Positions 5,542-25,048 are shown, numbered from the stretch's first letter. The stretch: 32,000 bases of DNA from Candidatus Heimdallarchaeota archaeon (GCA_030668875.1 DAOVER010000015.1:1-32000), one strand, 5' to 3'. A program made the numbers and translations. The notes: a model not told the origin generated them from the sequence alone.

Positions 5542-8028
5542 ATGGAGAAAAACATTCAATCAGTACCACGGAATAACGTTTATGCATTTCAGTTGAAGAT
5601 TTTGGCAAGAAGGTTATTTTTTTCGCTCATCATCTTCTTCCTTCTATCTGTCACACTAGCTCTAATTTTTCTTATTGGAGGATTAGACCATTATGATTAC
5701 TTTGAAATAATACTGACTTCAGCTCCATTTCTTATCATAAGTTTGATTTTCGTCCTCTATTTCTTCTTTCAATTACTACTTAAGTTCAGGTTTTTGGGCA
5801 TAAATGAACCATCTGCTAAATACTCAAGTAAGTATTCTATATTGATGGTTATTGGTTTCATAGTTTGTATCAATTCATCGTTCTTTTCATTTGTTGAGGT
5901 TAACGACGAGTGGTACTATTTTCAACATTGTCTAGCAATATTAGGAATAGTACTCCTTTTAACAGGTGCTATCAATTTCTCACTAACTTTAAGTATTTTC
6001 AAAAACAAAAATAAAATTCGATCATCAACAACCACTCACCTGCGTTTTATCTTTCCATTCGTATTTATTTTTATTATAGAGATCATCAATGCAATTGCAA
6101 GAAAAACTATTTTTCTAAATCTAGATTATGATGGCTATCGTTGGAGGACTGCTCAAGCTGAAGCATGTCAAGCTCTTAATTATACAACTTTCTTCATAAT
6201 TTTTTCTTCTGTTATACTCTTTCTTTATGCGCTTTTTGCTATGAGTAAGGCGCTTGGTACCTTAGATCTTTCAGTATCTGAACATTATACTGAACAACTA
6301 CTAGAAACACCTTCAGAAAGAGTAGAACGAATCTGTAAAATGTTATCTACGTTTTTGATTTTTACAACAATCACAGTATCTTTAGTCGTATTATTTGTAT
6401 TATCTGAGATTTACTGGGGTTTTTGGCGTTTTGATGACTATGGGACGATTGTTTTAATTATAGAATTTATTTTCTTGATATCTATTGGAATGACATTAGT
6501 CTATGTTAATACATTCAGATTTCTACTTCAAATAAAAGAATTCTCTAATTACTTTCCTAATCTGAAGAAGATTACTAGTTGGACTATATTCTTAATTGGT
6601 GGAGGTGTTCTGGTGATAACTTTAGCGTGTTACTTGTTTTTCTTGTCATTTGCATTACCTATATTAGATACTCATCAACTCGTATCTAAAATAATCATCC
6701 TCGTTGGTTTGCTTCTTGTAACAAGTGGTATGTTCTGCTTGAGAAGATTCTTTAAGTTCTTTGTAACCAAGGGATATCTCTCAAATAGTCAGTTAACTGG
6801 AAGTAACATCTTATTTTATACCTCGTTGTCTATACCTTTTGTACTCTTAGCTGAGATAATCACCACAAATATTGTTAATGCTAAATTAACAGAACTTCGT
6901 TGTACCGTTTATGATTATTGTCGTGTTGTTCTAACTCCATTAGGTGAATTAATCATGAAGTGGTTATCTTTTTCTATTCTATTTCTTTTCACTCTATTAG
7001 TAATCATCTTCTCGATAGGGTTATCCAAAATAAGTAAAAATCTCCCCCAAATCCATTCAATCTTGGATGAAAAAAGTATTTCTGAAATAAATACAATTTC
7101 TTTAAGAAATAAAATAATTATTGGTTTATTAAAAGGTAAAGATAGAGTTGCATATAACAAAGCTGCCTCCTATGATTTTGTTTTAAGACAAAGGAAGACA
7201 ATGAATTCTTCAAGAAATTTCATAATGCTCTTTTGTGCTGGATTGCTTCTGAACTTACTTGTAAAAATAATAATTATAATTCACGCAACAGATATGTCTT
7301 TTATTTTCTATAATACAGTTGTAGTCAGCCTCAAGTATGGCAGAAGTTTTACCATTATAGCAGCCTATATTTTTCTGTTCATTTTTCTAGAGGAACTACG
7401 CCAAGTAACGAGGAACACAAAAGCAAAATCATTCTCTTTAGGAACTTTGATAACATTTTCTATAGGGATGATTCTTTCCATTGGATTTAGAGAGTTATCT
7501 TTTATATATAGCATGATTTTTGATCTGGATACAGTTTTCTCTATAATTAATATATTTATCAGCTTAAGCTTTGTCCTTGGCTGTGTTTTTCTAATGCTAA
7601 CCTTAAATAAAGCAATTTCAAAAGAGAAAAATCTAATAACTAAACTATCTTATTATGGATTAATATTTTCAAGTTCTTTGATATTACTTAGAACAATTGT
7701 TTTTGCAGTTATGACCCCCATTGATAGCATTAAGACTGTTATTCTACTATATTCTGTAGAAATAGTACTGTCTGCTATTGTCGGTGTATTGATGATTGTT
7801 TGCATTATCAGAATTAGGTCTGGATTGCCTGAGCTTGATCCCTTCCAACTGCAAGAAGTGAAGGAAGGAAAAATTGACCAGAATAGAATTGAAACGGTTC
7901 ATCCATCAGTTGTTTATGATCCTATCAACTCAAAACCTGAAGTTGCTTTCTGCGTTAATTGTGGACAAAGGATAGAATATGATTCGAAATTCTGCGTTTC
8001 CTGTGGAGTAAATATAGAAAGAGAGTAA
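5542..8028 (+). CDS. Large polytopic membrane protein (three similar multi-TM modules) with C-terminal zinc ribbon; function unknown
   Basis: Many hydrophobic segments in three blocks separated by hydrophilic linkers. C-terminus is CVNCGQRIEYDSKFCVSCG. Confidence 0.8.
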   Translation: MEKNIQSVPRNNVYAFQLKILARRLFFSLIIFFLLSVTLALIFLIGGLDHYDYFEIILTSAPFLIISLIFVLYFFFQLLLKFRFLGINEPSAKYSSKYSILMVIGFIVCINSSFFSFVEVNDEWYYFQHCLAILGIVLLLTGAINFSLTLSIFKNKNKIRSSTTTHLRFIFPFVFIFIIEIINAIARKTIFLNLDYDGYRWRTAQAEACQALNYTTFFIIFSSVILFLYALFAMSKALGTLDLSVSEHYTEQLLETPSERVERICKMLSTFLIFTTITVSLVVLFVLSEIYWGFWRFDDYGTIVLIIEFIFLISIGMTLVYVNTFRFLLQIKEFSNYFPNLKKITSWTIFLIGGGVLVITLACYLFFLSFALPILDTHQLVSKIIILVGLLLVTSGMFCLRRFFKFFVTKGYLSNSQLTGSNILFYTSLSIPFVLLAEIITTNIVNAKLTELRCTVYDYCRVVLTPLGELIMKWLSFSILFLFTLLVIIFSIGLSKISKNLPQIHSILDEKSISEINTISLRNKIIIGLLKGKDRVAYNKAASYDFVLRQRKTMNSSRNFIMLFCAGLLLNLLVKIIIIIHATDMSFIFYNTVVVSLKYGRSFTIIAAYIFLFIFLEELRQVTRNTKAKSFSLGTLITFSIGMILSIGFRELSFIYSMIFDLDTVFSIINIFISLSFVLGCVFLMLTLNKAISKEKNLITKLSYYGLIFSSSLILLRTIVFAVMTPIDSIKTVILLYSVEIVLSAIVGVLMIVCIIRIRSGLPELDPFQLQEVKEGKIDQNRIETVHPSVVYDPINSKPEVAFCVNCGQRIEYDSKFCVSCGVNIERE

Positions 8029-8096: not shown

Positions 8097-9500
8097 ATGT
8101 TTAACATTAAAATCTCCTTAGTGACTTCATCAGGTCTTCTACTAGCTTCTAAACCTGAATCGGTAGACGATACTCAGCAGATTTTAGCTACTGAGTTGAT
8201 GACTGCATTAATTTCCTTTTCCAAAGAAGTCCATCATCGAGAATTACAATCTATTTCTTACCATGATAGAACTATTTCTTTTATCAGACTATTCGATTTT
8301 GTAATAATTATTGAGACTCTAGCTGAAGACGACGCTTTATCAGAAAAACAAATTAGTCAGTTGCTTGAGCATCTACAAAAATGTATCTCTCCTCTCTTAG
8401 AAAATGTGGACGTTGATACTCTCACTGAGGGACAAGCAGAGTTAATTCTTGAGAGCAGTTTGCAAGAGATCTCTCAATTACAATATAGTATTACAGAAAA
8501 ACCGTTTGCAGCGGGAGAGAAGGCCACTTTCAAATTAAACCATCTTTCAAAAGGATGGGAGATACTTGATAAAGAGGGAGAAGGCTCACACATTCCTATT
8601 ATCGCTCTCATGTTGGAAACATTAAAAGTTAATAAAACAATGCAAAATGGCATTAGTTGTATTGTTAATCAGATTCCTAATGAAAACTGTAGTACATTTA
8701 CAATAACCATAACTGAATATAAGATTACAGAAGTAGGTATTCTTAAACTTCCTATAAAATCAGATTTAACGCTGTTTAGATTGTTCCCATTAATGAAGAA
8801 AAACATTGAAAGACTTTATGATGAAGATGAAAGGAATTTTGATTATATTCTTACTTCTCTTATGGATATTGAAGATCCGGGTTCAAGGATTTCTAAATTT
8901 AATCTTGAAGATCTCTCACCTTCTTTCCTTGATAAAACTTTAGGAAAAAATCTTGACAAAGTAATATACAGCACGATTGTTGGTGATGGAATATTAGTTG
9001 TTGGAGATAAGCCAACAGTTAGATTGATTATTGATGCTCTTTCAATCATGAATCAACATCTACATACTACAGTTAATGTCTGGATTAGTCCTACTGATCT
9101 GACTTCAGAAGAAAAATGCATGTTGGAAACTCGTATTTGCGGAATGAATTCTCAGATTTATGACAGAATAAAAGAAAATGAAAAACTCTTAGAAAATATG
9201 ATAATTGTCAACTTAGATACAGGAAAAGTTATAGCAACAAAATCAAGTATTTACTTCAAAAAATTATTTGACACAGTTAAGAAGCTGAAAGTGGATGAGA
9301 TAAGTACAAAAATGAGCCAAGAGTTAGACAAACTCGCATTAGCTGCTTTAACTATTACTTCCTTTGGTCTAATAGGTAAGAATAAGGGAAAAGAGAAACT
9401 TAAAGCGTTTATATCAAGTTCTGAATATCCAGCTAGTTTCATAAAAAAAGCTCTTGAATTAGCAATAAAAATGAATCCGCTTCTAGATTACTTACAGTAA
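8097..9500 (+). CDS. Longin-domain protein with DENN/folliculin-like C-terminal region (paralog A)
   Basis: The N-terminal ~125 aa follow the longin beta-beta-alpha-beta-beta-beta-alpha pattern (SLVTSSGLLLAS / LMTALISFSKE / LQSISYHDRTISF..FVIIIET / helix). C-terminal VIYSTIVGDGILVVG..LIIDALSIM..ICGM..IVNLDTGKV resembles a DENN core. Longin call moderate; DENN call weaker. Confidence 0.65.
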   Translation: MFNIKISLVTSSGLLLASKPESVDDTQQILATELMTALISFSKEVHHRELQSISYHDRTISFIRLFDFVIIIETLAEDDALSEKQISQLLEHLQKCISPLLENVDVDTLTEGQAELILESSLQEISQLQYSITEKPFAAGEKATFKLNHLSKGWEILDKEGEGSHIPIIALMLETLKVNKTMQNGISCIVNQIPNENCSTFTITITEYKITEVGILKLPIKSDLTLFRLFPLMKKNIERLYDEDERNFDYILTSLMDIEDPGSRISKFNLEDLSPSFLDKTLGKNLDKVIYSTIVGDGILVVGDKPTVRLIIDALSIMNQHLHTTVNVWISPTDLTSEEKCMLETRICGMNSQIYDRIKENEKLLENMIIVNLDTGKVIATKSSIYFKKLFDTVKKLKVDEISTKMSQELDKLALAALTITSFGLIGKNKGKEKLKAFISSSEYPASFIKKALELAIKMNPLLDYLQ

Positions 9501-9516
9501 ATAGTCCTTTTTCCTC
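9501..9516 (+). repeat. Left target-site duplication ATAGTCCTTTTTCCTC
   Basis: Exact 16-bp copy at 10521-10536; abuts the TGT end of the IS. Confidence 0.93.
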
Positions 9517-10520
9517 TGTTAACTCCACCCACATTGGTGACAGTTAAATAAGAGGGGTTACAGTGGGCATGTGACCAAACATGAACCCAAACAGTAACCC
9601 GATGCTTATAAGGAAACGTGTAGTTAAAAAGGCTTTGAAAAGAATACCAATCACCCACATAGCAAGACAACACATGGTGTCAAGGAAATTCGTCTACAAG
9701 TGGATTAGACGGCATAGTGAAAATCCTGAAGGAGAATGGTGGGAAGAACGCTCTCGGCGACCAAGGAGAATAAGGAGAAAGGTAACACCACAGATAAGAG
9801 AGAAGATCATCAAGCTCAGGAGAGCTTATGGCTTGAACATCATGCAGACTGAACAATGGTTCAGGAGGAAGGGACTAGTGCTCTCCCACACCACCATCTG
9901 GAAGACCCTCCAACGAGAAGGAGAACCCCCTTGGAGAAAGAAACCGTACAAGAAGAAGGCGAGAAAGAGATTCGAACGCCCACGTCCCAATGACCTCTGG
10001 CAACTGGATATCAAAGGTCCCTTCTGGGTAGAAGAGCAGGGACAACACCTCTACCTCTTGACGGTGATTGATGACCACTCCCGCTTCCTGCTGGAGAGTA
10101 GACTCTACCCCCATCCTATCAGTCAGCAAGAGATCTTGACAAGGTTACAGCAGTGCTTCCAGCTTTATAGTCGTCCCAAGCAAGTTCTAACAGACAATGG
10201 TGCACAGTTCCACGCTATGCGAGGGGGGACAAGTACCTTCACTCGAGTGCTCGCTCAGGAAGGAATAAAACATATCCGCAGCCGTGTCTTCCACCCTGAG
10301 ACTTGTGGGAAGGTCGAGCGTCAGCATGGTACAACTGTCAGAGAGCTGAAGAGGTTAAGATTAAAATATTGTAATGCCGACCTCCGGCACTATAAGGACT
10401 ACTACAACTTCTTCCGTCCTCATCAAGGAATCAACCTCCAAACTCCAGGTGAAAGATTTATGAACCAAGCTCCCAAAGATATCCTGCCCAAAAGTGTAAC
10501 CGATCTTAGTTGAGTTAACA
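9517..10520 (+). mobile_element. IS481-family insertion sequence, 1004 bp, apparently intact
   Basis: 5'-TGT...ACA-3' ends. 26-bp imperfect terminal inverted repeats match at 20/26 positions, with the first 9 (TGTTAACTC) identical. Single DDE transposase, 16-bp TSD, visibly GC-richer than the host. Confidence 0.93.
9581..10513 (+). CDS. IS481-family DDE transposase
   Basis: N-terminal HTH (IARQHMVSRKFVYKWIRR), WQLDIKG, IDDHSR, LTDNGAQF, GKVER, YNFFRPHQGI. The stop codon lies inside the right TIR. Confidence 0.93.
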   Translation: MNPNSNPMLIRKRVVKKALKRIPITHIARQHMVSRKFVYKWIRRHSENPEGEWWEERSRRPRRIRRKVTPQIREKIIKLRRAYGLNIMQTEQWFRRKGLVLSHTTIWKTLQREGEPPWRKKPYKKKARKRFERPRPNDLWQLDIKGPFWVEEQGQHLYLLTVIDDHSRFLLESRLYPHPISQQEILTRLQQCFQLYSRPKQVLTDNGAQFHAMRGGTSTFTRVLAQEGIKHIRSRVFHPETCGKVERQHGTTVRELKRLRLKYCNADLRHYKDYYNFFRPHQGINLQTPGERFMNQAPKDILPKSVTDLS

Positions 10521-10536
10521 ATAGTCCTTTTTCCTC
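10521..10536 (+). repeat. Right target-site duplication ATAGTCCTTTTTCCTC
   Basis: Exact copy of 9501-9516. Confidence 0.93.
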
Positions 10537-10597
10537 CAATAAGCTTTTAAATCTATTAAATTTTAATATCTTTTGTTAATTGAAAAAGTGATTAGAG

Positions 10598-12040
10598 ATG
10601 ATAGCAACGCCAAAGGAGATACAAGAAGAAAACAAACCCAAAATGAAAAGAATAGCTTCTTTAGATTTTCAAAGAGGTTTGGCGATATGGATGATGGTTT
10701 TCTTACATGTTTTCGATCACATATGGGACTTCTCAAGTGTCGGACTTAATGATCTTTTTACAACCTTAAACTTTGGACTATCTTTAGTCATGGTAATAAT
10801 GGCTTTTTTTGGTGGATTTGCAGGTTACTTTATCTTAATCTCCTCTGTTGTAAACAGTCTAGCAACAACAAAAAGTGCTATAAAAAGAACACCCCCCGGG
10901 AAATTATTATTCAAAAGAATTCTAACTGGCGTTGGTATTTTAATAGCTGGAAGAATAACTGAAACTTTTGGATATTACGGTTATTTTGGAAGAGTACTTC
11001 GTTCTGGTGATTCAATACTTGCAGCTTCAACTTGGACAGATCCTTTTGCACTCTCATTTTTCTGGAGAAGGATATTCATGATGGAAGCCCTCCAGATTAT
11101 AGGCTGGTGTCAAATTATTACAGGTGTAGTAGCTTTCTTCCTTGTTAGGAATGGTGGTGCAAAGAAATTAGCTCGTAACTTGATTATTTACTCTGGTTTA
11201 GCGGTTGTTATTTTAGTGGCAACTCCATTCATGTGGAACTGGATTGATAATCTAAATTGGTCTAATCTTCCTTCTGCAGGATTACTCGCAGATTGGGATT
11301 TAAATAATGCTGATCTTTATCATAACGCGTGGCCTAGCGAAGCTTTACAGTCAGAAAATGCTTCATTTCTAGCATATCTTTGTGTGATATTAACAGGAGA
11401 TTTGTACCCCATTTTCCCATTCTTAGCAACTTCTTTTATAGGCTCAGCATGGGGATTACTACTCGCCAAACCTAAACCTTCGAAAAAACTACCTCTTTAT
11501 GGGGGACTGGTAACTTTAGGTATCTTTGTAATAGGAGCAGTGCTAAATATCATCCTTGGTTTTGATTTAAACTTCCAACGCCCACCTATGCAATACTTCT
11601 TCCTTCTGTTAGGAGCACAATTTGGAATAATGATACTTCTACTATGGTTAGTAGAATATAGAGGAAAAGCACAGAAATTTGGTAACAACATTATTGTGAA
11701 ATATTTCAGGTTATGGGGAACAATAGCTCTCTCAGTATTTAGTTTGCAAATTTGGTCACTTGTGCCGAGAGCAATTTTGAACCCTATCTTCAATATTAAT
11801 CTGATGAATGAGAAGTTTCCACTAAAATATGGCTGGTGGGTTATATTATTTGCAGTGTTGACCATTCTCTGTTATGACCTGTTGTTCTGGTTGTGGGCTC
11901 AAATAAATTTCATTTTCAGTTTCGAATGGTTCATAATTAAATTGGGAAGTTTGCCTACCAAAAGTGTCTCAAGAAGATTAAATGTAAAAGAGATATTGCA
12001 TGGCGTAGAATGGATGGATTATAAAGAAATGTCAGAATGA
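10598..12040 (+). CDS. DUF1624 / heparan-alpha-glucosaminide N-acetyltransferase-like polytopic membrane acyltransferase
   Basis: N-terminal RIASLDFQRGLAIWMMVFLH (RxxxxDxxRGxAxxxMxxxH), EALQIIG and multiple TM helices. Substrate unknown. Confidence 0.65.
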   Translation: MIATPKEIQEENKPKMKRIASLDFQRGLAIWMMVFLHVFDHIWDFSSVGLNDLFTTLNFGLSLVMVIMAFFGGFAGYFILISSVVNSLATTKSAIKRTPPGKLLFKRILTGVGILIAGRITETFGYYGYFGRVLRSGDSILAASTWTDPFALSFFWRRIFMMEALQIIGWCQIITGVVAFFLVRNGGAKKLARNLIIYSGLAVVILVATPFMWNWIDNLNWSNLPSAGLLADWDLNNADLYHNAWPSEALQSENASFLAYLCVILTGDLYPIFPFLATSFIGSAWGLLLAKPKPSKKLPLYGGLVTLGIFVIGAVLNIILGFDLNFQRPPMQYFFLLLGAQFGIMILLLWLVEYRGKAQKFGNNIIVKYFRLWGTIALSVFSLQIWSLVPRAILNPIFNINLMNEKFPLKYGWWVILFAVLTILCYDLLFWLWAQINFIFSFEWFIIKLGSLPTKSVSRRLNVKEILHGVEWMDYKEMSE

Positions 12041-12068
12041 CCCCATTTAGTATTTACGACTAGTAGAA

Positions 12069-12084
12069 AAGAAATTTACTTATA
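12069..12084 (+). promoter_or_regulatory. BRE/TATA-like promoter core AAGAAATTTACTTATA (second copy)
   Basis: Starts 39 nt upstream of ATG 12108; identical to 8054-8069. Confidence 0.65.
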
Positions 12085-12107
12085 GAGATTATTGGTAAAC
12101 ATACTAA

Positions 12108-13505
12108 ATGGATAATATCAAGCTCTCTTTAGTATCATATTCTGGTCTTCTGCTTGCGTCTAAGCCTGAAACAGCTGATGATACTCAGCAGATACTTGCA
12201 TCGGGTCTTATTTCAGCAATAATCACTTATGCTAAAGAGGTGCATCATGAAGATTTGCAATCTATTTCCTATCACGACAGAACAATTTCTTTTGTTAAGT
12301 TTCAGGAATTTGTTTTTATTGTTGAGACCTTAGATAAAGAATTCACATTTACAGAAAGACAATCAAAACAGCTGCTAGAACAAATCAAATTGAGTGCGTT
12401 TTCCCTACTTGATGAACGTAATTCTGACCTAATTTCAGAAGGAGAGGCGCAATTGATACTAGAACACTGTTTTCACGATATTAATAGTTTGAATATTATC
12501 TTAACCCGTTACCCTCTGAAAAATCTTATTCCAGAGATATTTACTATTCAACATAAAGTTAAGGGTGTTGAGTTTATTGAAAATAGTTCAGATAGAGCTT
12601 ATCATAGATCTATTGCTAAGATTATAGATAAAAATATCCTCAGTGTAAATCAAGAAATAAAAGCTCATAGTTTTTTAACTCTAATTCCTGAACATAAAAA
12701 AACATTTTACGTGATTTTTAATACAGACGGTTTTACAACAAAAGTTGGCTATTTTATTATTCCACAAGAATTAGATTATACAATGTTTAGAATCTATTCT
12801 ATGTTAGAGCGATTGATTAAGAGTTACACTGGAAGTAGACAGAATTTTGAGTTTATAGATTTACTTGTAGAATTACAAGAATATGAAGATTCTGGTAATA
12901 AATTTTCTATGATTGATTTGGATGAGATCTCTCTCTCAACACTTTCAAATATGACTCGTAAAGACTTAGATATTGTTTTATTTGCTGCTCTTTCAGGTAA
13001 CCCTATTTATGTTGTAGGAGGTAAATCTGTCTCAAAGTTGCTTGTTGATACACTTTCCATCTTTACTCAACATCTTAGCTTCAATGTTGCCGGCTGGATC
13101 ACAGAGGATGATTTATCCAAAGTAGATTTCAATATATTTCTTCGAGGAATTGTTGGAATGTCTTCGAGTACTTATCAATCGATATTACCCCTTATTCATA
13201 ACAAGGAAATGATAACTGTGATAGATCTTGAAGAAGATGAAATAAAAGGTCCAAGCGCTAGTTCATATTTCATTCAGTTTTTTGATAAAATCAAAAAGAA
13301 AGATCCTACAAAAGCTTCAGTTATAATTTTTCAAGAATTGAAAAAACTTGTATCTTTGGCATATATTATCACATCAATAGGTATGAAGGAAAGAAGAGAT
13401 TATCAAACTCTTTTGAAAGAATTGAGTATTCAATTTCCGTATCCCATTAGTTTCATTGAGAAAGCTCTAAATCTTGCAAAGCAAAGAAACAAGTTTCTGG
13501 AATAA
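12108..13505 (+). CDS. Longin-domain protein with DENN/folliculin-like C-terminal region (paralog B)
   Basis: 52/75 identical residues with paralog A over the N-terminus (manual count). Longin motif GLISAIITYAKE. C-terminal VLFAALSGNPIYVVG..LLVDTLSIF..GIVGM..ITVIDLEED. Confidence 0.65.
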   Translation: MDNIKLSLVSYSGLLLASKPETADDTQQILASGLISAIITYAKEVHHEDLQSISYHDRTISFVKFQEFVFIVETLDKEFTFTERQSKQLLEQIKLSAFSLLDERNSDLISEGEAQLILEHCFHDINSLNIILTRYPLKNLIPEIFTIQHKVKGVEFIENSSDRAYHRSIAKIIDKNILSVNQEIKAHSFLTLIPEHKKTFYVIFNTDGFTTKVGYFIIPQELDYTMFRIYSMLERLIKSYTGSRQNFEFIDLLVELQEYEDSGNKFSMIDLDEISLSTLSNMTRKDLDIVLFAALSGNPIYVVGGKSVSKLLVDTLSIFTQHLSFNVAGWITEDDLSKVDFNIFLRGIVGMSSSTYQSILPLIHNKEMITVIDLEEDEIKGPSASSYFIQFFDKIKKKDPTKASVIIFQELKKLVSLAYIITSIGMKERRDYQTLLKELSIQFPYPISFIEKALNLAKQRNKFLE

Positions 13506-13625
13506 TGTCTTTAGTTTCAATAAGTTCACAGTTATTGCATTATTTTTGAGGAGGAGGTCTAAAGACTTGTATTCTCTTTTTTTAGACACATTTAGTTAAA
13601 TTAATAAGTAGAGAAATGAAATAAA

Positions 13626-13643
13626 GTTTCGGTAAGCCAAAAT
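13626..13643. promoter_or_regulatory. Predicted DtxR-family operator GTTTCGGTAAGCCAAAAT in the sufCB promoter
   Basis: 14/18 identical to the operators at 25005 and 25026. Lies 17 nt downstream of TATA-like TTAATAAG (13601-13608). Confidence 0.7.
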
Positions 13644-13709
13644 TTGTGAAGTCCTTACACTAGGTTTCAAATTTGTATTTACTAAGAAAGAGTGACATTA
13701 GAAATAATA

Positions 13710-14486
13710 ATGGGTGAAATAATGCTAGATATTAGGAATCTTAATGTTTCAGTTGAAGGAAAGGAGATCTTGCGTAATGTGAATATCACTTTACGCGATG
13801 GAGAAGTTCATGCACTTTTTGGTCCAAATGGTAGTGGTAAGACTACATTAATTATGACAATTATTGGTTATCCTCAATTTGAAGTAACTAAAGGTGAGAT
13901 AATCTTTGAAGGAGAAAATTTGCTTGAACTAGAAATTGATGAAAGAGCTAGATTAGGAATTGGTGTAGCTCAACAGAGACCACCCACAATTAAAGGTGTA
14001 AAATTAAGAAATATAATTGATTTCTACTTAAGAAATAATCCTGAGAAGGTAGACTATATTTCTAAACAAATAGAAAAATTTGAAATGCAAGATTTCATAG
14101 ATAGAGAAGTTAACGCTAATCTGTCAGGTGGAGAGATAAAAAGATCAGAAATTTTCCAAATGGTTTTATCATCGCCTAAGTTCTTTATACTTGATGAACC
14201 AGATTCAGGAATCGATCCGGAGTTTTTAGGTAAAATCGGAGCGATGCTTACTGAAATATTACGATCAGAAAAGAAACAAGATCAAATAATTACTAGATCT
14301 TCGGGATTAATTATAACTCACACAGGAGACATATTGAATTATTTTAATGCGGATTTAGCACACTTAATGATGAATGGCACTATTGGTTGTACAGGAAATC
14401 CACAAGAGATGCTGGAACAAATACAACAACATGGTTATGAATATTGTATAAAATGCAATAGAAGGAAAAAAGGGGTTTGTGATTAA
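13710..14486 (+). CDS. sufC: Fe-S cluster assembly ATPase SufC (SmsC type)
   Basis: GPNGSGKT, LSGGEIKRSE, DEPDSG, LIITHTG, C-terminal GYEYCIKC. The start may be GTG 13692, ATG 13710 or ATG 13722. Confidence 0.92.
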   Translation: MGEIMLDIRNLNVSVEGKEILRNVNITLRDGEVHALFGPNGSGKTTLIMTIIGYPQFEVTKGEIIFEGENLLELEIDERARLGIGVAQQRPPTIKGVKLRNIIDFYLRNNPEKVDYISKQIEKFEMQDFIDREVNANLSGGEIKRSEIFQMVLSSPKFFILDEPDSGIDPEFLGKIGAMLTEILRSEKKQDQIITRSSGLIITHTGDILNYFNADLAHLMMNGTIGCTGNPQEMLEQIQQHGYEYCIKCNRRKKGVCD

Positions 14487-15734
14487 ATGTATAATAATAG
14501 ACATAAAAGAGGAATACAATCAAACAAAGAGCAATTTGACATTATAGATCTAGATGAAGAGGATGTTCATAAACTAAAAGAAAATCTTCCATCCGAGATT
14601 CGTTCATTAGATGAAATGAAAGCAAAAGATGTCCAAACCTTGGCAGAGGTAGGAATGTTGATGGATGAAAGTAATCGTTCAGGAACTTATTTGTGTTATG
14701 GACAGTATGGTTTTGTTACTGCACAATTCATTGAGGGACTTGAGTGCATCCCAATAGCAGAAGCATTAGAAAGATATCTTTGGTTGAAAGAAAAATATTG
14801 GTTCAAAGCAATAAGAAAAAATGAAGATAAAATTGTTGAAACCATTTCTAACTCAATTCCAAGAGGCTTTTTCATAAGAGTAAGAAAGGGTTACAAAATA
14901 AAAAAACCCTTCCAAGCTGCATTATATATGACAAGGAGTACTAGGGTACATGGTCTTCATAATATTATAATACTAGAAGAAGACTCAGAATTGACACTTC
15001 TTACCGGATGCACAAGAGCACATGATGCCAAGAAGGGTCTGCACCTAGCTATTTCAGAGATATATATCGGAAAAAATGCTAAACTTGTTAGTACAATGAT
15101 TCATAATTGGGGACCAAACTTTGATATTGAGCCTAGAACCTGTACCATTGTTGAAGAGGGTGGTATATTTATAAATACGTATTGTTCAACCAACCCTCCA
15201 AGAACAGTCCAGATGTATCCATTCACACATTTACAAGGAGATAATTCTTCAGCGAAGTATGCGTCTATAATTTTGGGAACACCTAATACCTATTGCGATA
15301 TTGGGGGAACAATTTTGATGGAAGGGACCAACAGTGGTGCAGAGATATGTGCTAGAGCTGTTTGCAAAGGAGGAAATATTGTTCAAACAGGTTTAATCAT
15401 AGGGAAAGGGGAAAATTGTCGCGCACATGTTGATTGTGCAGGACTTATGATGAGTAATGAAGGAATGATAGAGGCAACACCAGCGTTACGAGCACTCAAT
15501 CCTAATGCTAGAATGAGTCATGAGGCTTCTATTGGACGAATTGCTCCAGGAGAGTTGGTCTATTTGATGTCGAAGGGTTTCACAGAAGAAAAAGCATTAT
15601 CGACAATAATTAGAGGGTTCATAGATCCAGGAATTGAAGGCATATCCCCAGAATTAGATGCTGCTTTAACAGAAGTAGCAGAGATTTCAGGTCATGGTGA
15701 AGAATGGGATGTGATTCCGATTAGAAATAGATGA
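14487..15734 (+). CDS. sufB: SufB/SufD family Fe-S scaffold (SmsB type)
   Basis: Beta-helix-type sequence with HNIII, TGCT, MIHNWG, AHVDCAGL, HEASIGRIA, IIRGF. Immediately follows the sufC stop. Confidence 0.88.
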   Translation: MYNNRHKRGIQSNKEQFDIIDLDEEDVHKLKENLPSEIRSLDEMKAKDVQTLAEVGMLMDESNRSGTYLCYGQYGFVTAQFIEGLECIPIAEALERYLWLKEKYWFKAIRKNEDKIVETISNSIPRGFFIRVRKGYKIKKPFQAALYMTRSTRVHGLHNIIILEEDSELTLLTGCTRAHDAKKGLHLAISEIYIGKNAKLVSTMIHNWGPNFDIEPRTCTIVEEGGIFINTYCSTNPPRTVQMYPFTHLQGDNSSAKYASIILGTPNTYCDIGGTILMEGTNSGAEICARAVCKGGNIVQTGLIIGKGENCRAHVDCAGLMMSNEGMIEATPALRALNPNARMSHEASIGRIAPGELVYLMSKGFTEEKALSTIIRGFIDPGIEGISPELDAALTEVAEISGHGEEWDVIPIRNR

Positions 15735-15778
15735 AAATAACAAAGGTAAGGAGAATAAAAGAAAGGTTGTGATAAGAA

Positions 15779-16339
15779 ATGAATGTAACGATAATAGATT
15801 ATGTAATGTACATGTTGTTGAGAATGAGAGATATCGTTGGTTATCCCTTTAAACCTAAAAAAGAATTGAAAAAACTTAAAATCAGAAAAGATGACACTAT
15901 ACTTGATTTTGGATGTGGAGTAGGGTCTTTTACGATTCCATTAGCACAGATCATAACAAAGGGAACAATCTATGCTTTAGATAAACAGCGATATGCTACA
16001 GAAACTGTTGAAAGAAGAGCAATAAGGAAAGGAATTCAAAATATTGAAACAATAATATCTAATGGAGAAACAAGTCTAGAAAATGAAACTGTTGATGTTG
16101 TTATGCTTTTTGGAGTGTTACCAGAAATTAAAGACAAAGAGAGAGTTCTTAATGAGATGTATAGGATTTTAAAACCCAAAGGTTTTTTATCTACTCGATT
16201 TTGTTTCCACATCTCAAAAGAAGAAATAATTGAATTAATGGAAAAAACAGGCTTATTCACATTTATTGAACAGAAAGGAAAAATCCTCAATTATAGGAAG
16301 AAAGAGATCATAAAAGAAATAGACTTATCTGTTGGATAA
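15779..16339 (+). CDS. Class I SAM-dependent methyltransferase
   Basis: Motif I ILDFGCGVG, acidic residue in YALD, VDVV, LKPKG. Confidence 0.85.
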   Translation: MNVTIIDYVMYMLLRMRDIVGYPFKPKKELKKLKIRKDDTILDFGCGVGSFTIPLAQIITKGTIYALDKQRYATETVERRAIRKGIQNIETIISNGETSLENETVDVVMLFGVLPEIKDKERVLNEMYRILKPKGFLSTRFCFHISKEEIIELMEKTGLFTFIEQKGKILNYRKKEIIKEIDLSVG

Positions 16340-16390
16340 AGTGAATGAATAACATAATCAAGCTTTTTCTTTTAATTCATTTCATTAATA

Positions 16391-18136
16391 CTAAGATTTA
16401 ATTAAAGTCTCAATCTCTTCTATTCTGTAGCATTTGCCATTTCTAAGTTGATAAACACAATCAACATGAGCAAGGCTTGAAAGTCTATGGGTAACAAGAA
16501 TAACAGTTTTATTCTTACATACCTCATTCAAAGTTTTTTGAATGGCATTCTCGTTCAGAGTATCTAAGTTAGAAACAGGTTCATCTAAAATTAGTATAGG
16601 GGTGTTTTTCATTAATGCTCTAGCAATAAGTATTCTCTGTTTTTCTCCACTAGATAATCTGTCCCCAATCTCTCCTATCTGTGTTTCATATCCTCTAGGC
16701 AATGTTTCAATGAAATCATGAATATAAACCATCTTTGCATATTTTATGATTTCATCCATACTTCCGCTAGGATTACCCAATTGTATATTTTCTTTAATTG
16801 TAGTATTGAATAAAAATGAGTCATAAGAGACAACAGCTATCATTTGATAGAGTGTTTTTTGGCAGATATTATTGATATTTCGCTTACCAATAATGATTTC
16901 ACCTGAATCTAAATTCCAAAAACGAAGTAATAACCTCAAAGAAGTACTTTTACCACACCCGCTTTCCCCTACAAGAGCAATAGTAGTTCCTTGTTGCACA
17001 CTCATACTAAAACCATCTAAAACATTCGATTCATTTGGGGAATACCTAAAACACACATTATTAAACTCAATATCATAATCTGAAGGGATTTTTGAAGAGC
17101 ATTCTGGAATGTCTTTAACAACAGGTTTTTCATCAATAATTCTGAATAATCTTTCTGCTGCAGCAAATGTTAAAGCTAAGTAATGAGAAACTGAACTTAC
17201 TGACAATAAAGGACCAAATGAACTGATAGCTATAGCAACAACTATTATTAGTCCCTGAATACTTAATATTCCAGCTTGAAATCCTATTACTGAAACAACA
17301 ACTATTACGATATCTGCAGTTAGAACAATTGCATTTATAATCCCTTTTAGAAAACCTTCAGCTGTAGAATATTTTCCCTTAGCTTTGTTCAATACTAATC
17401 CTTTGTTAGCAATTTCTTCCTTTCTTTTCTTACCATAGTTAAAAAGAAGGATAGTTTTCAATCCTTGTAATGAATCAGTTAAATGAGCGTTATTTTCTCC
17501 AAGGATAGCTTGAATTGTTTGCCCCCTACTTCTAACAATGCGCTCCCAAATAAGAGGAATGATCATTCCTAAAACAAACTGGAAAGGCAATATTACTAGA
17601 GCAATAATACCCCACCATGATGATAGAAAAATAGTTACTGTCAAAGATACTATAGCTGCAATTACAACTGGTGAGATTGTATGAGCAAAAAAAACTTCAA
17701 TTAGTTCTATATCTCCCGAAATAGTTGAAATTATGTCACCACTACGTTTGTTTATTAGCTTTGCTGGAGCTAATGGCTCTAATTTCTTGTAAAGTTTTGT
17801 ACGTAAATTTGCTAATAAACGGAAAGCTACATTATGATTTTCTGCTTGCTCTAGATATGAACTAAAGGATTTAATTAGTGCAAATATAAAAAGTAAAACT
17901 ATTTCCCAAACTGCAGGAGAAGTCTTCAAAACAAATATTTTAGAAATTAACCAAGCTCCCCAACCGATAAGAGCAATGTTAGATAGATTGTTCAAAATAC
18001 CAAAAATAGTTGCAATGGTCATTGGAACAAAGAGTGGTTTAGCCATTCTAAGCAATCTTATAATAATTTGAAATCTGGACATATCTTTTTTACACAAAAC
18101 AGGAGCTGAAGCTTTTTGATACATCATTCTGTGCAT
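16391..18136 (-). CDS. CydC-like ABC transporter half (TMD+NBD)
   Basis: DIELIEVFFAHTISP, Walker A GESGCGKS, signature LSSGEKQR, LILDEP, VTHRL. Confidence 0.85.
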   Translation of the reverse strand: MHRMMYQKASAPVLCKKDMSRFQIIIRLLRMAKPLFVPMTIATIFGILNNLSNIALIGWGAWLISKIFVLKTSPAVWEIVLLFIFALIKSFSSYLEQAENHNVAFRLLANLRTKLYKKLEPLAPAKLINKRSGDIISTISGDIELIEVFFAHTISPVVIAAIVSLTVTIFLSSWWGIIALVILPFQFVLGMIIPLIWERIVRSRGQTIQAILGENNAHLTDSLQGLKTILLFNYGKKRKEEIANKGLVLNKAKGKYSTAEGFLKGIINAIVLTADIVIVVVSVIGFQAGILSIQGLIIVVAIAISSFGPLLSVSSVSHYLALTFAAAERLFRIIDEKPVVKDIPECSSKIPSDYDIEFNNVCFRYSPNESNVLDGFSMSVQQGTTIALVGESGCGKSTSLRLLLRFWNLDSGEIIIGKRNINNICQKTLYQMIAVVSYDSFLFNTTIKENIQLGNPSGSMDEIIKYAKMVYIHDFIETLPRGYETQIGEIGDRLSSGEKQRILIARALMKNTPILILDEPVSNLDTLNENAIQKTLNEVCKNKTVILVTHRLSSLAHVDCVYQLRNGKCYRIEEIETLIKS

Positions 18137-19968
18137 CCCCTATCTTTGCTTCCTCTTCTGTCTCTTGGTTTTCTTGCTGATCCTCCTCCACTAACCGTTG
18201 CATAAATCTTTATCATCTCTTCTTTAACATCTGCAGATTCATGTTCTAGTTGATGATGAACAAGATTAACATAAACACTATTTTTTTCCATTAGTTCTTC
18301 ATGAGTTCCCTCTTCTGAAATAATTCCATTATTAAGAACAATTATTTTATCAGAATCTCTTATTGTACTTAATCGATGTGCTATAATGATTGTTGTTTTA
18401 TTTTTAGAGATTTCCTTTATGGTTTCAATGATTTTAGCTTCATTCTCTCTATCAACATCTGCAGTTGGTTCATCAAGAATTAGAATGGGAGTATCCTTCA
18501 ACAATGCTCTCGCTATACCAAATCTTTGAATTTGACCTGCAGATATGTTTTTCGCATGTTCAACAAGTGAGGAATCTAATCCATTGGGAAGTGATTTAAT
18601 GAAGCAATCAATTCCTGCTTTCTTACAAACTACATATAATTCTTCCTCCGTTGATTCAGGTCTGGCTATAAGTAAGTTTTCTCTAATGGTTCCATGAAAC
18701 AAGTATGTTCTTTGGGAAACCATTGCAATATGTTTCCTTATATTGTTTCTACTTATATTTTCTATATCGTGTTTATCTATGTATATCTGTCCTGAAGTAG
18801 GTTCACACAGTTTTACTATTAAATTGGCAATTGTAGATTTTCCTGAGCCACTAATACCAACTATTGCTGTTATTTGATCAGTTTTCGCAATAAAATTTAC
18901 ACCTTTCAAAACTTGAGGAGTATCAGTTGTGTATGTGAAGTTAACATCACAGAATTCTATATCAAAATTGTCGTTTGAAGATAACATGCTGAAAGGTTTG
19001 CTTTTTTCCAACTTGGTCTTTTGATCGAGAATTTCAAAGATTGATTTAGAAGCTGATATCCCATTCATTGCAACATGGAAAGCAGAACCTAACCTACGTA
19101 AAGGTCTGAACATTTCATAAGATAGAAACAAGACAACAATCGCTCCTGCGAGTGTAATTAAATGAGTGGAAAGATAGGTTATGGCTAATGTGATTCCTAA
19201 AGCAGTTCCCATTAAAGCTATTATATCCATTGTCAATATAGAAACAAGATTAGTGTACAGAAGCTTCATAGTTCTATTACGAAATTCCCAGCTTCTTGTC
19301 CTAATTGTGTTTGTCCTTTGTTCAACTAAATTAAATAGTTTCAAAGTTGTAATCCCTTGTATGGAATCTAAGTACAAACTATTCAAATCCTCATATGTGC
19401 TCCAGTGCATCCTTGAAACATGTCTAATCCAAGCTTGAACAGCACCAACACACAGGGGAATAAGTGGTACTCCTAGAACTAAAGCAAGAGCTATTGTTGG
19501 TTGATATATGCGCAAATAAAAGTATAATCCAAATGGAATTAAGATACTTAAGAATATTTGAGGAAGAAATAACCCAAAGAAGACCTCTAGAGCTTCAACT
19601 CCTTCGATAGAAGTTGTAATGAGTCCACCAGTTTTTTTAATATCTTTATAACTCATTTCAAGATCTAATAATTTGGAATAAATCTTTTCACGCACATTGA
19701 TCTTAATTTTCGCTGAAATTTTGAACGTTATTTTATTAGAAAAAAGTGAAAAAACAAGTCTTAATACTGAAGCAGAAATCATCACACTAATGTTCAAAAT
19801 AAACCAAGAGTCTTTGATCGAATTATTTGTAACAACCATAAATATAGTATGTGCTACTCTATCGATTACAACAACACTAGTACTAACTATTAAGATATCA
19901 CAAAGGGTTTTAATTAGTACTAAACTGGTTTGAACCTTATCTAAAGAAAAAAAAATGTTCCTTCTCAT
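18124..19968 (-). CDS. CydD-like ABC transporter half (TMD+NBD)
   Basis: EGVEALEVFFGLFLPQ, Walker A GISGSGKS, ISAGQIQR, LILDEP, IAHRL. Overlaps the partner gene by 13 bp. AGGAGA SD upstream. Confidence 0.85.
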   Translation of the reverse strand: MRRNIFFSLDKVQTSLVLIKTLCDILIVSTSVVVIDRVAHTIFMVVTNNSIKDSWFILNISVMISASVLRLVFSLFSNKITFKISAKIKINVREKIYSKLLDLEMSYKDIKKTGGLITTSIEGVEALEVFFGLFLPQIFLSILIPFGLYFYLRIYQPTIALALVLGVPLIPLCVGAVQAWIRHVSRMHWSTYEDLNSLYLDSIQGITTLKLFNLVEQRTNTIRTRSWEFRNRTMKLLYTNLVSILTMDIIALMGTALGITLAITYLSTHLITLAGAIVVLFLSYEMFRPLRRLGSAFHVAMNGISASKSIFEILDQKTKLEKSKPFSMLSSNDNFDIEFCDVNFTYTTDTPQVLKGVNFIAKTDQITAIVGISGSGKSTIANLIVKLCEPTSGQIYIDKHDIENISRNNIRKHIAMVSQRTYLFHGTIRENLLIARPESTEEELYVVCKKAGIDCFIKSLPNGLDSSLVEHAKNISAGQIQRFGIARALLKDTPILILDEPTADVDRENEAKIIETIKEISKNKTTIIIAHRLSTIRDSDKIIVLNNGIISEEGTHEELMEKNSVYVNLVHHQLEHESADVKEEMIKIYATVSGGGSARKPRDRRGSKDRGCTE

Positions 19969-19970
19969 AG

Positions 19971-21236
19971 TTAATCTCCTTTCATTAGAGTTTTCATAGC
20001 ATGCGGGTCAGGTTTTTCGAATATTTTTACGTGATATTTGTATATAATAATTACACAAACAACAACTAAACCTAGGAATTCAATGATTCCTGCAATTATG
20101 AATGCTATTACATAATTTTCTGTATTAACAAGTGCTCCACCTATTAAGGGTCCAATTATAATTCCTAAATTTCCTACGAAATTGAAAAAACCCATTCCCA
20201 TCGCTCGATCTTCCTTTCTAATACAATCTCCCACTAAAGCCATGTTTGGTGGAGAAGTGATACCAGAAAAAGTACCTAAAACAAATAGAATAGCGACTAA
20301 GCTTATAAAGCCAAATGAACTAGCAAAACCTACAAAACACATGATGATTCCATAGAAAAAGCTTCCAATGACGAGAGGTTTGAAACGACCTATTTTATCA
20401 CTGAGTTTACCAATAGGGTATTGAAGAAGAATGAAGGGAAGAGCAAAAATACCTAAAGCCATCCCTCTTTTGCTTGGATCTAAACCTAGAACATCAAGAA
20501 TTAATAAAGGTAGAGCGAATAATATAAATCCCATGTGCAATCTGTCAATAAAATTGAAGATACTTGGAATGACAAGTTTGGGATTGTTTTTGACAATTGA
20601 AAGGTTTTGAATAATTGAAGGATTTCTATTAAGGTTTTGTGGTTCTCTTAGAATAACTAAGGCAACAATGAGAACTAAAGCATTCAGAATAACAGCTATA
20701 TAATAGGGAATGAAAATACCTTGTACAGCAAGGAAACCACCAAGCATAGGACCAAGACCCATGGCAAGTGAAAGGAAAACTCCATAAATCCCCATGTTTC
20801 TACCACGGGATTGAGGAGAGGATAAGTCTAATATCAATGTCATAAAGGTCTGCCAGGACAGAACAATGAATGAACCTTGAAAAAAGCGAAAGGTCAACAA
20901 AACAGGATAGTTTGGAGCAATTGTTAACAACCAAGAAAAGAGAGAGGCACCTATACTACCTACTACAATAAATAATTTGCGTTTACCATAACGATCAGAC
21001 AATATTCCAGTGATTATTCCAACAGTTAAATATGAAATATAGATGATTGTGTCATAGAAGGATATCTGGAAATTAGAAATAGAAGGATAAATAAGTTGAA
21101 TAAACTCTTTCTCGTTTGTATGTAAGATACCAACTGAGGTAATTGCAAACATAGCTAGTAATCCGAGTAACAAAACCTGAACAGTATTGTTTTGATTTTT
21201 ATTGTCGTCTATGTCCTTAATACTTTCATAATCCAT
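19971..21236 (-). CDS. Major facilitator superfamily transporter
   Basis: Motif A GILSDRYGKRK and GKLSDKIGRFK, two repeated TM halves. Start placed at the MDYES ATG (21236) rather than the track start 21332, which would overlap the upstream ORF. Confidence 0.88.
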   Translation of the reverse strand: MDYESIKDIDDNKNQNNTVQVLLLGLLAMFAITSVGILHTNEKEFIQLIYPSISNFQISFYDTIIYISYLTVGIITGILSDRYGKRKLFIVVGSIGASLFSWLLTIAPNYPVLLTFRFFQGSFIVLSWQTFMTLILDLSSPQSRGRNMGIYGVFLSLAMGLGPMLGGFLAVQGIFIPYYIAVILNALVLIVALVILREPQNLNRNPSIIQNLSIVKNNPKLVIPSIFNFIDRLHMGFILFALPLLILDVLGLDPSKRGMALGIFALPFILLQYPIGKLSDKIGRFKPLVIGSFFYGIIMCFVGFASSFGFISLVAILFVLGTFSGITSPPNMALVGDCIRKEDRAMGMGFFNFVGNLGIIIGPLIGGALVNTENYVIAFIIAGIIEFLGLVVVCVIIIYKYHVKIFEKPDPHAMKTLMKGD

Positions 21237-21435
21237 TTGAATTAACCACCAATAATTTATTTGTTCTATCAGACAAAAGATATGCTGAAACATTTGTATC
21301 ATAAATCGAATACAGTTCTTCATATATTTCACCAGCGGGTGTTGGATACCACATTGGTTGAAATTTTAAGAAAACGACAATTGTGAGGCTAATAATAATA
21401 ACAATTATTTTTAGTAGTATATAGATAGCTCTCAT
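21226..21435 (-). CDS. Small (69 aa) N-terminally membrane-anchored protein, unknown function
   Basis: GAGGT SD about 10 nt before the ATG, N-terminal hydrophobic helix, 11-bp overlap with the MFS start. Confidence 0.5.
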   Translation of the reverse strand: MRAIYILLKIIVIIISLTIVVFLKFQPMWYPTPAGEIYEELYSIYDTNVSAYLLSDRTNKLLVVNSNGL

Positions 21436-21566
21436 TTTTTAATTACCTCTAGTATTTGTAGAAAAACTGTTATTTCTTCGTTTGTACAATTTCTTCATTA
21501 CACAGTATATTTTCAGTAGTTTCTTTGATTATGGGTGTCTCTAGTCAGATAAACTTCTTATTCTAT

Positions 21567-21899
21567 TCAAATAAGCAACCTTTGTTGTTTTGCAGCTAAA
21601 TGCTCTATAGCTCTTTTTCCCTTTGAAGTTAATATTAAGATTTGATTATCATTCTCAATAAAGGAGCAATTATTAGAGAATGGGCACAGGTTACAAGAAA
21701 GTGATGACAAGCCTTTACTTGATGAGCGATTATCTAGAATTGATTTTTGCTTATCAACATGTTGTTTTTGAAGGTATCCAACAGTTATACAATGATCGAG
21801 TTTAGAATGTAATAAACCAATATCTATGTTTAGTTTTTCTGCAGACTGTTGAACTGTTGTAACCCCTTCATTAATCGCACTTAACACTTCTAATAGCAA
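21567..21899 (-). CDS. FeoC-like winged-helix protein with CxxCPxxxxC motif
   Basis: wHTH-like N-terminus (..AEKLNID..L...GYL), SCNLCPFSNNC, LTSKG wing. GGTGAG SD. Located in the feo operon. Confidence 0.7.
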   Translation of the reverse strand: MLLEVLSAINEGVTTVQQSAEKLNIDIGLLHSKLDHCITVGYLQKQHVDKQKSILDNRSSSKGLSSLSCNLCPFSNNCSFIENDNQILILTSKGKRAIEHLAAKQQRLLI

Positions 21900-21929
21900 T
21901 ATTAACTCACCATTCCTTTATCATTATAT

Positions 21930-22421
21930 CTAACTTTGTAGGACTATTGTCTTTTTCTTTCTAGTAAATATAACTTCTCTATATTTCATAATAAAGAATA
22001 TAGGAATTGGGGATAGAAAGATAATCCATCGCAAACTAGCTAAGATTGTCCAATCTTCATAATCCTCTAGTCCCAAAGCATATGCATTGAAGATATCAGT
22101 TAATAGAATCAAAATGAACAAGAGTATGAATCCTAATGCAATTACGGTACCCACAGAAAGGTATCCATTAGCATTTTGACCTTTTCTAGTTACAAAATAA
22201 CCAACTAACCATATCAAACCAATGAGAAGAACTGCTAATCCAGGAAAAATTCCTGGTGGGAAAGGTATTGCATTAACCCAATGTTCTTCTAGTTCTTTTG
22301 AATCAGTATATATCTTAATAGCTCCTAGTATGATTTCAGCTAGAGCTGTAATTAAGAAAATAAGACTACCTACAAGTAAGGATGTTTTCATATTGTCTGA
22401 AGTATTCTTTGAATTTTCCAT
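21930..22421 (-). CDS. Four-TM hypothetical membrane protein in the feo operon
   Basis: Four hydrophobic segments, PFPPGIFPG motif. ATG 22421 has a GGTGAT SD that overlaps the feoB stop and the track's GTG start at 22430. Confidence 0.75.
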   Translation of the reverse strand: MENSKNTSDNMKTSLLVGSLIFLITALAEIILGAIKIYTDSKELEEHWVNAIPFPPGIFPGLAVLLIGLIWLVGYFVTRKGQNANGYLSVGTVIALGFILLFILILLTDIFNAYALGLEDYEDWTILASLRWIIFLSPIPIFFIMKYREVIFTRKKKTIVLQS

Positions 22422-22430
22422 TTTTATCAC

Positions 22431-24981: not shown

Positions 24982-24999
24982 TTAATCACTTCAATTAGT

Positions 25000-25045: not shown

Positions 25046-25048
25046 CAC

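Follow-up and report, generated by a model that had tools for sequence, protein, structure and literature searches.

Longin-DENN paralogues of a Heimdallarchaeal genus as candidate regulators of Arf-family GTPases

Two paralogous genes of a longin-DENN family

Two genes, here called A and B, lie on the same strand of a 32,000-nucleotide stretch from a Candidatus Heimdallarchaeota archaeon (GCA_030668875.1 DAOVER010000015.1:1-32000), and the whole of this stretch is referred to below as the window. Both products combine longin and DENN-type domains; the open reading frames (ORFs), with their domain limits in amino acids (aa), are as follows.

8097..9500, plus strand: ORF A (paralogue A), 467 aa; longin-1 aa 1-131, longin-2/uDENN aa ~141-242, cDENN and dDENN aa ~264-466
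12108..13505, plus strand: ORF B (paralogue B), 465 aa; longin-1 aa 1-127, longin-2/uDENN aa ~143-241, cDENN and dDENN aa ~265-460

An initial annotation of this DNA had described A and B as paralogues, which the alignment bears out: BLASTP joins them end to end with 37% identity and 58% positives (E 1e-92, far past chance). The A stop codon and the B start codon are 2,607 bp apart. The motifs that the annotation quoted are present in B, namely ALSGNPIYVVG (aa 293-303), GIVGM (aa 347-351) and VIDLE (aa 371-375), and NCBIfam holds no name for either protein. The small family to which both paralogues belong is confined to the Heimdallarchaeia.

The class of protein has already been published, and the pair described here is a further member of a known Asgard DENN protein kind. 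The Asgard study of Liu et al. reportedly appeared in Nature in 2021. Asgard DENN domains, FLCN-like longin-plus-DENN proteins of Heimdall archaea and expanded paralogue families are described, together with an operon that joins a DENN protein to a small GTPase (Liu et al., 10.1101/2020.10.19.343400), so the statement of the initial annotation that longin and DENN-like proteins are reported from Asgard archaea is confirmed by the literature. These proteins come from the same phylum and are of the same kind as A and B. In addition, a 2025 paper describes FLCN/SMCR8-type longins of Heimdall archaea with a GP motif and an arginine finger (PMC12290439). The extra N-terminal longin of A and B, which resembles the first longins of guanine nucleotide exchange factors (GEFs), may or may not have a prior description. 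No paper was returned when the literature was searched for 'tri-longin' combined with 'Asgard'.

Fold and domain architecture

AlphaFold2 models computed from family alignments are confident for both proteins, with a mean predicted local distance difference test (pLDDT) score of 82.8 and a predicted template modelling (pTM) score of 0.81 for B, and 84.4 and 0.70, respectively, for A. Both models contain two successive ββαβββα longin units (aa ~1-130 and ~140-242). The remainder (aa ~265-465) is a βα-repeat sheet followed by four long helices and is not a longin. When B was compared with the PDB by Foldseek, the top matches were DENND1B-Rab35 (3tw8, E 4.4e-8), DENND1A, DENND10, C9orf72 and FLCN, and the tri-longin GEFs ranked lower (BLOC-3, Mon1-Ccz1 and Fuzzy-Inturned, E 5e-6 to 6e-4). 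Against AlphaFold/Swiss-Prot, B aa ~131-463 covers the whole DENN modules of DENND11, DENND1B, DENND10 and C9orf72 (E 4e-8 to 1e-6); these alignments begin at aa ~131-142, that is, they take in longin-2/uDENN.

The domains were also scored separately with VIA-align, a structural alignment on the DALI scale. For the C-terminal half of B, the DENN domain of FLCN (3v42) was matched by aa 273-461 with Z 11.6 and a root-mean-square deviation (rmsd) of 3.9 Å over 177 of 199 residues, DENND1A with Z 11.7, SMCR8 with Z 11.3, and DENND10 within the Commander complex (8p0v) with Z 10.1. For A, the corresponding values were Z 12.0 and 3.4 Å for FLCN 3v42 (aa 272-460, 174 of 199 residues), Z 12.2 and 3.5 Å for SMCR8 (aa 221-461), and Z 12.6 for DENND1A (aa 268-460), DENND1A and DENND1B both being matched at this value. 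Longin-2 of A (aa 139-260) resembles the longin of Lst4, the FNIP orthologue (Z 10.4, rmsd 2.8 Å). Longin-1 is less particular and, at Z 10-13, is similar to a wide range of longins, among them TRAPP subunits, CCZ1, HPS4, Fuzzy, Sec22b, sigma-adaptins and one lokiarchaeal longin; in A (aa 1-132), TRAPP and CCZ1 longins reach Z 12.8-13.2, and the first longins of CCZ1, HPS4 and Fuzzy reach Z 12.0-12.8 with an rmsd of 2.6-2.8 Å.

Precomputed Pfam annotation points in the same direction. PF27109, named SMCR8_C in the Atlas output, is assigned to many A-type and B-type orthologues (80-86% identical to B among the B-type carriers), at E <= 1e-5 in the case of orthologue P0008 (80% identical to B). 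This annotation is read on orthologues only, as the window proteins are listed without Pfam data. Local Pfam searches with A and B themselves gave only sub-threshold N-terminal hints, to the first-longin models of INTU/CCZ1/HPS4 and FUZ/MON1/HPS1. Intu_longin_1 matched B at E 0.072 and P0008 at E 0.0016, and Fuz_longin_1 matched P0008 at E 0.0043, all under the curated cut-offs (13.8-19.1 bits vs 23.7-26.1).

Overall, the models support an architecture of one longin followed by a uDENN-cDENN-dDENN module, which places A and B nearest to the FLCN/SMCR8 branch with one extra N-terminal longin. In eukaryotes, small GTPases are switched by proteins of this DENN fold. The initial annotation had predicted an N-terminal longin, a second longin in the uDENN position and a C-terminal DENN core with a helical lobe. 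AlphaFold2, Foldseek, VIA-align and the SMCR8_C assignments on orthologues agree with it in all three respects, and the Foldseek comparison that it had called for does match the C-terminal region to DENN. The modelled likeness to DENND-type DENN domains is at the fold level only. DENND1A and DENND1B, which are Rab35 GEFs (3tw8, 6ekk), give the best Foldseek matches to B (E 4e-8), and aa ~131-463 spans their uDENN-cDENN-dDENN; the C-terminal halves of A and B align with them at Z 11.5-12.6, but with an rmsd of 5-6 Å as compared with 3.4-3.9 Å for FLCN and SMCR8.

Distribution and duplication history

Homologues of A and B form 49 clusters at 90% identity, or 39 representatives at 50% identity among 1.8 billion proteins, and all the named ones come from Heimdall-group Asgard archaea. 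Matches were found in 40 of 82 genomes of the class. Among 250 genomes of the phylum, they were limited to three families of this class, the other 22 families sampled having none. Within the window's genus, about 15 of 23 genomes carry two full copies on the same contig and the same strand, separated by 62-225 bp or, where a GNAT acetyltransferase gene lies between them on the opposite strand, by ~860 bp. By contrast, all eight other genera that have the family carry one copy each, including two complete single-contig genomes.

In a maximum-likelihood tree, the upstream copies form clade A (support 99/98) and the downstream copies form clade B (93/99), and the single-copy proteins from sister genera join the two clades in a polytomy that is not resolved. 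The end branch of the window's B (1.09) is long compared with that of its A (0.55). The clades, taken with the single copies elsewhere, indicate that the A/B duplication is older than the radiation of the genus and yet confined to that lineage. The synteny comparison across Asgard genomes that the initial annotation had proposed thus finds a tandem pair in one genus, and the pair is not general, as orthologues are single in eight other genera and one member of the genus has B only. That annotation had also presented the pair as a candidate archaeal precursor of the eukaryotic heterodimeric complexes. This is not supported, since no more than one genus has the duplication, and the pair is an independent parallel of the eukaryotic heterodimers.

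The genus member with B only (G010) keeps it on a 220-kb contig, with no second match in the assembly. At the site where A would be expected (L048, G010:C75, 9157-10078), the interval from B to the PmbA/TldD genes contains only ORFs of 71-88 aa, suggesting that A was lost by deletion or decay while B stayed.

An Arf-family GTPase beside the genes in relatives

The initial annotation had noted that the window contains no small GTPase gene and regarded the target of the pair as unknown. The first point holds, as we found no Ras-superfamily small GTPase among the window ORFs of at least 100 aa, in which the sole G domain is that of FeoB (22431-24473, minus strand). On the second point, relatives are informative, since they place the family beside an Arf-family GTPase, although the block that contains it was not found in the window's own genome.

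In four genomes of the genus (G023, G016, G020 and G013), the gene order is c7 - c6 - c9 - [c11] - A - [GNAT] - B, with c7-c6-c9-[c11]-A-B co-directional. In G005, a single-copy genome of another genus, c7-c6-c9 directly abuts the family gene, and in G072, which belongs to another family, c7 and c6 are found 6 kb downstream of it. In addition, the contigs with the A/B pair in G030 and G011 also carry c7, and the family gene of G028 shares its contig with a c7 fragment. The product of c6 is an Arf-family GTPase (PF00025 1.1e-40 vs Ras 6.6e-14). Its P-loop reads GLDDAGKTT, its switch II contains DLAGQE and its N-terminus is hydrophobic/basic, features that we take to be those of Arf proteins. 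The c9 product is a 277-aa multi-pass membrane protein. The c7 product (164 aa) shows language-model similarity to the longins of NPR2, C9orf72 and Lst7, with scores of 0.75-0.91 and a recognition value under the tool's own mark, and its NPR2/Folliculin-like longin character is taken here as a lead only. NCBIfam has no name for c7 or c9. Within the genus, c6 and c7 each share 78-92% identity with their orthologues. This linkage supports a GTPase-related role for the family. The linked GTPase is Arf-type by Pfam, whereas the one described by Liu et al. (10.1101/2020.10.19.343400) is Rab-like.

We also considered whether c7 is a detached copy of the family longin and rejected this, as the profile-profile comparison gave a probability of 0.15% (E 0.4). 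Proteins of the c7 type (~165 aa) occur in up to nine copies per genome in sister family f7 (G070-G081) and are absent or single-copy in most of the window's genus.

Further longin, DENN and Arf-domain genes were observed in the window's own genome, G000. On contig C47, a 327-aa protein (L003:321-1301, plus strand) matches the family cDENN/dDENN with its C-terminal part (E 5.2e-9), and ~3 kb away is a 318-aa protein (L055:1087-2040, minus strand) that has a C-terminal extension in addition to its Arf domain (PF00025 1.9e-35). The two could make up a second DENN-Arf neighbourhood. On contig C19 (L004:1396-3222, minus strand), the C-terminal region of a 609-aa tetratricopeptide repeat protein bears a weak resemblance to first longins (Fuz_longin_1, E 0.0018) and to the family longin-1 (E 1.1e-4).

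Conserved residues

The strictly conserved residues of the family cluster in cDENN (G304, Q321-H322, W330 and G350-M351). In longin-1, the conserved positions are G13, which is near-invariant, P20, D57 and E73. Three arginines, placed from the family alignment, are candidates for a catalytic role comparable to that of FLCN R164 or SMCR8 R147. R48 is present in 19 of 19 clade A sequences and is Q or E in clade B; R58 is likewise present in 19 of 19 in clade A, with a mixture of K and R in clade B; R228 is fixed in both clades and is R or K in 19 of 22 single-copy forms. The alignment shows a mild asymmetry between the paralogues, with basic residues strict in A and loose in B.

Possible association of A and B

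When A and B were predicted as a complex from separate A-type and B-type alignments, the interface score (ipSAE) was 0.53 (0.49, 0.53 and 0.55 in individual runs), as compared with 0.00 for the best of three controls, with at least 82% contact agreement among runs and a partner pLDDT of at least 75. In calibration, 58 of the 80 solved complexes tried reached the mark that this score passes, as did 2 of 110 mismatched pairs, and the range up to 0.60 holds 7 of those 80 solved complexes and both passing mismatches. Paralogues of a true partner can pass the same test, and the prediction does not separate A/B from A/A or B/B. At most, these models hint that family members tend to self-associate.

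The heterodimer that the initial annotation had inferred from the neighbouring genes is accordingly retained here in part. The complex prediction lends it weak support and does not single out A/B; the tandem clades and the predicted complex are compatible with an A/B heterodimer, which is possible, while the eight single-copy genera and the genome with B only speak on the other side. In particular, the presence of B without A in G010 counts against an obligate heterodimer, and the evidence as a whole leans the same way.

Interpretation

The reading that we favor, and consider somewhat probable, is that A and B are a folliculin/SMCR8-type DENN family whose members are regulators of, or docking platforms for, Arf-family GTPases and act as dimers, possibly as A/B in this genus. 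The proteins would be GEF-like or resemble GTPase-activating proteins (GAPs), and would dimerize through the longin domains, the DENN domains or both. The ancestral single-copy form would be a homodimer. Following tandem duplication in this genus, the pair may act as an A/B heterodimer, in which A is the stricter partner with respect to R48 and R58. In the genome studied here, where the linked block of Arf, longin and membrane protein genes is missing, the client would have to be one or more of 14 other Arf-like GTPases encoded elsewhere.

Several results weigh against this reading in one part or another. As for the fold, no Pfam uDENN, DENN or dDENN match was found at E <= 1 on A or B, nor at E <= 10 on five orthologues. 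Searches of all PDB chains with the B sequence and the family profile returned nothing beyond chance Mdm2 matches (E 0.45-1.3) and gave no residue-level alignment to FLCN, SMCR8 or DENND1. As for catalysis, the literal 'GP' motif of GAP-type longins was not found, the near-invariant G13, before strand 2, being followed by L or I, and the conservation analysis identified no arginine invariant across the whole family. As for the client, c7 and c9 were not found in the window's genome, which is 92% complete and in which the best c6 match, one of the 14 Arf-like paralogues, is 38% identical. Orthologues of c7 (E < 1e-80) are likewise missing from the assemblies of about ten further members of the genus in which A and B are both retained. 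A/B pairs therefore persist without the Arf block, and the pair is not dependent on this one GTPase. As for pairing, the single copies outside the genus, the B-only genome, the range of complex scores shared with mismatched pairs and the ability of a true partner's paralogues to pass have been described above. In addition, A and B are often split by unrelated genes (an opposite-strand GNAT gene, a membrane protein gene or an insertion sequence), and co-transcription of the two is for this reason not assured.

The strongest alternative is that A and B have been independent since the duplication, each a homodimer or monomer with its own GTPase clients or conditions. As the eight other genera with the family have one copy each, the ancestral protein functioned with no paralogue to pair with. 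The retention of B alone in G010, the unrelated genes and insertion sequence between A and B, the 14 Arf-like paralogues that could serve as separate clients, and the much faster evolution of B than of A in this genome (1.09 vs 0.55) fit this alternative as well. However, both clades stand side by side in ~15 genomes of the genus, and the complex prediction, weak as it is, is compatible with A/B contact. The asymmetric basic residues, moreover, recall the catalytic and non-catalytic subunits of eukaryotic longin-DENN complexes (PMC12290439), and we regard full independence as somewhat unlikely.

It is also conceivable, if quite improbable, that the proteins are non-catalytic scaffolds or adaptors of DENN fold that exert no control over nucleotide state and might tether a membrane protein or another complex. 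DENND10, which was matched within the Commander complex (8p0v, Z 10.1), would be a structural precedent. The missing family-wide catalytic arginine, the persistence of the pair in genomes without the linked Arf block and the recurrence of multi-pass membrane proteins beside the genes would be explained too. This is countered by the linkage to an Arf GTPase, which recurs in two genera or more and, in a looser form, in a third lineage, and by the invariant cDENN residues (G304, QH321-322, W330 and G350), which point to a functional surface beyond the needs of the fold.

A very improbable variant is a RabGEF-like complex, in which the two longin-1 domains of a dimer form the exchange platform and the C-terminal domain serves only for assembly or membrane targeting: it draws on the weak Intu_longin_1 and Fuz_longin_1 matches of B and P0008, on the similarity of A longin-1 to the first longins of CCZ1, HPS4 and Fuzzy (Z 12.0-12.8), and on the presence of BLOC-3, Mon1-Ccz1 and Fuzzy-Inturned among the Foldseek matches (E 5e-6 to 6e-4), but those Pfam matches are all below the curated cut-offs, longin-1 is equally like unrelated longins (Sec22b, TRAPP subunits, sigma-adaptins), the GTPase linked in relatives is Arf-type rather than Rab-type, and the third domain, a βα-repeat sheet with helices, matches DENN at Z 11-12.6. 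In complexes of the BLOC-3, Mon1-Ccz1 and Fuzzy-Inturned type, the first longins of two paralogous subunits bind the Rab (PMC8833172 and PMC12383261). Their subunits are likewise paired ~450-aa paralogues that start with two longins, of which the first resembles longin-1 of A and B (CCZ1, HPS4, Fuzzy). Membership of A and B in the tri-longin RabGEFs, which have three successive longins, was rejected, as the models and VIA-align show a DENN core with a helical lobe, and no longin, in the third position.

Returning to the favored reading of A and B as folliculin/SMCR8-type, Arf-related dimers, the closest eukaryotic counterparts are FLCN-FNIP1/2 and C9orf72-SMCR8 (3v42, 6nzd, 6lt0, 7mge). They share with A and B a longin followed by a cDENN/dDENN C-terminal domain, and the C-terminal halves align at Z 11.6-12.0 with the FLCN DENN (174-177 of 199 residues) and at Z 11.3-12.2 with SMCR8. 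They also consist of two paralogous subunits; A and B, likewise paralogues, are neighbours on the DNA. Unlike them, A and B start with an additional longin, and neither a literal GP motif nor an arginine invariant throughout the family was found; sequence identity to eukaryotic proteins of the FLCN/SMCR8 group is 7-15% only. The A/B heterodimer is, moreover, only predicted, and the genus-confined duplication is separate from the eukaryotic ones. DENND1A/B differ from A and B in that the latter have no Pfam uDENN/DENN/dDENN match and that the candidate client in relatives is an Arf, not a Rab.

A bolder version of this reading, which we consider unlikely but worth stating, is that the A/B pair is an independent prokaryotic re-run of the FLCN-FNIP and C9orf72-SMCR8 step, in which a homodimer was duplicated in tandem into an asymmetric heterodimer, the basic residues being kept in A and relaxed in B, and which ancestrally would have worked with c7, as a small NPRL2/Lst7-like longin, and the multi-pass membrane protein c9 to switch an Arf GTPase at a membrane. 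If this were true, the pair would be a regulator of Arf GTPases native to Asgard archaea, and experiments have so far identified no such protein.

Significance

Asgard archaea encode many Arf-, Rab- and Rag-like GTPases for which no native regulators are known; work on Asgard Arf proteins published in 2025 reports no convincing GAP or GEF candidates (PMC11914678). The family described here is small, well defined and confidently folded, and in some species its genes adjoin those for an Arf GTPase, for a small longin-like protein and for a membrane protein. Three states of it occur in nature: a single copy, a tandem A/B pair, and a pair with or without the GTPase block. These states would allow tests of longin-DENN switching of GTPases before eukaryotes and of the transition from homodimer to heterodimer. 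The window's own copy is less useful for such tests because the candidate client gene is missing.

Genomic context of the pair in the window

Three further features lie beside or between A and B.

5542-8028: multi-pass membrane protein of 828 aa with a zinc ribbon at its C-terminus; encoded between A and the PmbA/TldD pair
9500..10536, plus strand: IS481-like insertion sequence; rve transposase ORF at 9581-10513 (Pfam rve 1.8e-15, and helix-turn-helix domains)
10598..12040, plus strand: 480-aa multi-pass membrane protein, in the ORF between A and B

The IS481-like element is intact and starts at the last base of the A stop codon. A perfect target-site duplication of 17 nt (9500-9516 and 10520-10536) flanks it, and its inverted ends, 29 nt long, have the form TGT...ACA. 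No insertion sequence is present at the A-B site in the closest relatives, represented by three contigs (L060-L062), so the insertion is recent. The same three contigs carry an equivalent of the 480-aa gene between A and B (421 aa on one of them), while other members of the genus have the opposite-strand GNAT gene or nothing in the gap. The 480-aa protein belongs to no Pfam or NCBIfam family. Its identity with c9 of the Arf block was ruled out, as the two are unrelated by comparison.

On the upstream side, the 828-aa gene has no counterpart at this position in relatives; in L060-L062 and several genomes of the genus, A comes immediately after the PmbA/TldD genes. On the downstream side, where the window was compared with L060:11407-12350, B of the closest relatives is followed directly by genes for an ATP-binding cassette (ABC) ATPase, a 12TM_1 membrane protein and an epimerase, which correspond to window positions 25814-29480. 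The ~12-kb block of iron genes at window 13600-25700 (SufC/SufB, a methyltransferase, ABC exporters, a major facilitator superfamily (MFS) transporter, FeoB and an iron repressor) is not found there in the relatives. As their B adjoins the genes that lie at 25814-29480 in the window, the block is probably a lineage-specific insertion or rearrangement, a comparison made by gene order and Pfam content only. Judged by the same gene order, the locus appears to be a derived, disrupted version of the pair arrangement, with an insertion sequence, the 828-aa gene and the iron block added and the Arf block missing.

Outside A, B and the three features above, the window encodes a TnpB-like protein, a RING protein, the two PmbA/TldD peptidases and sugar-nucleotide enzymes, together with the SufC/SufB, methyltransferase, ABC exporter, MFS transporter, FeoB and iron repressor genes of the iron block.

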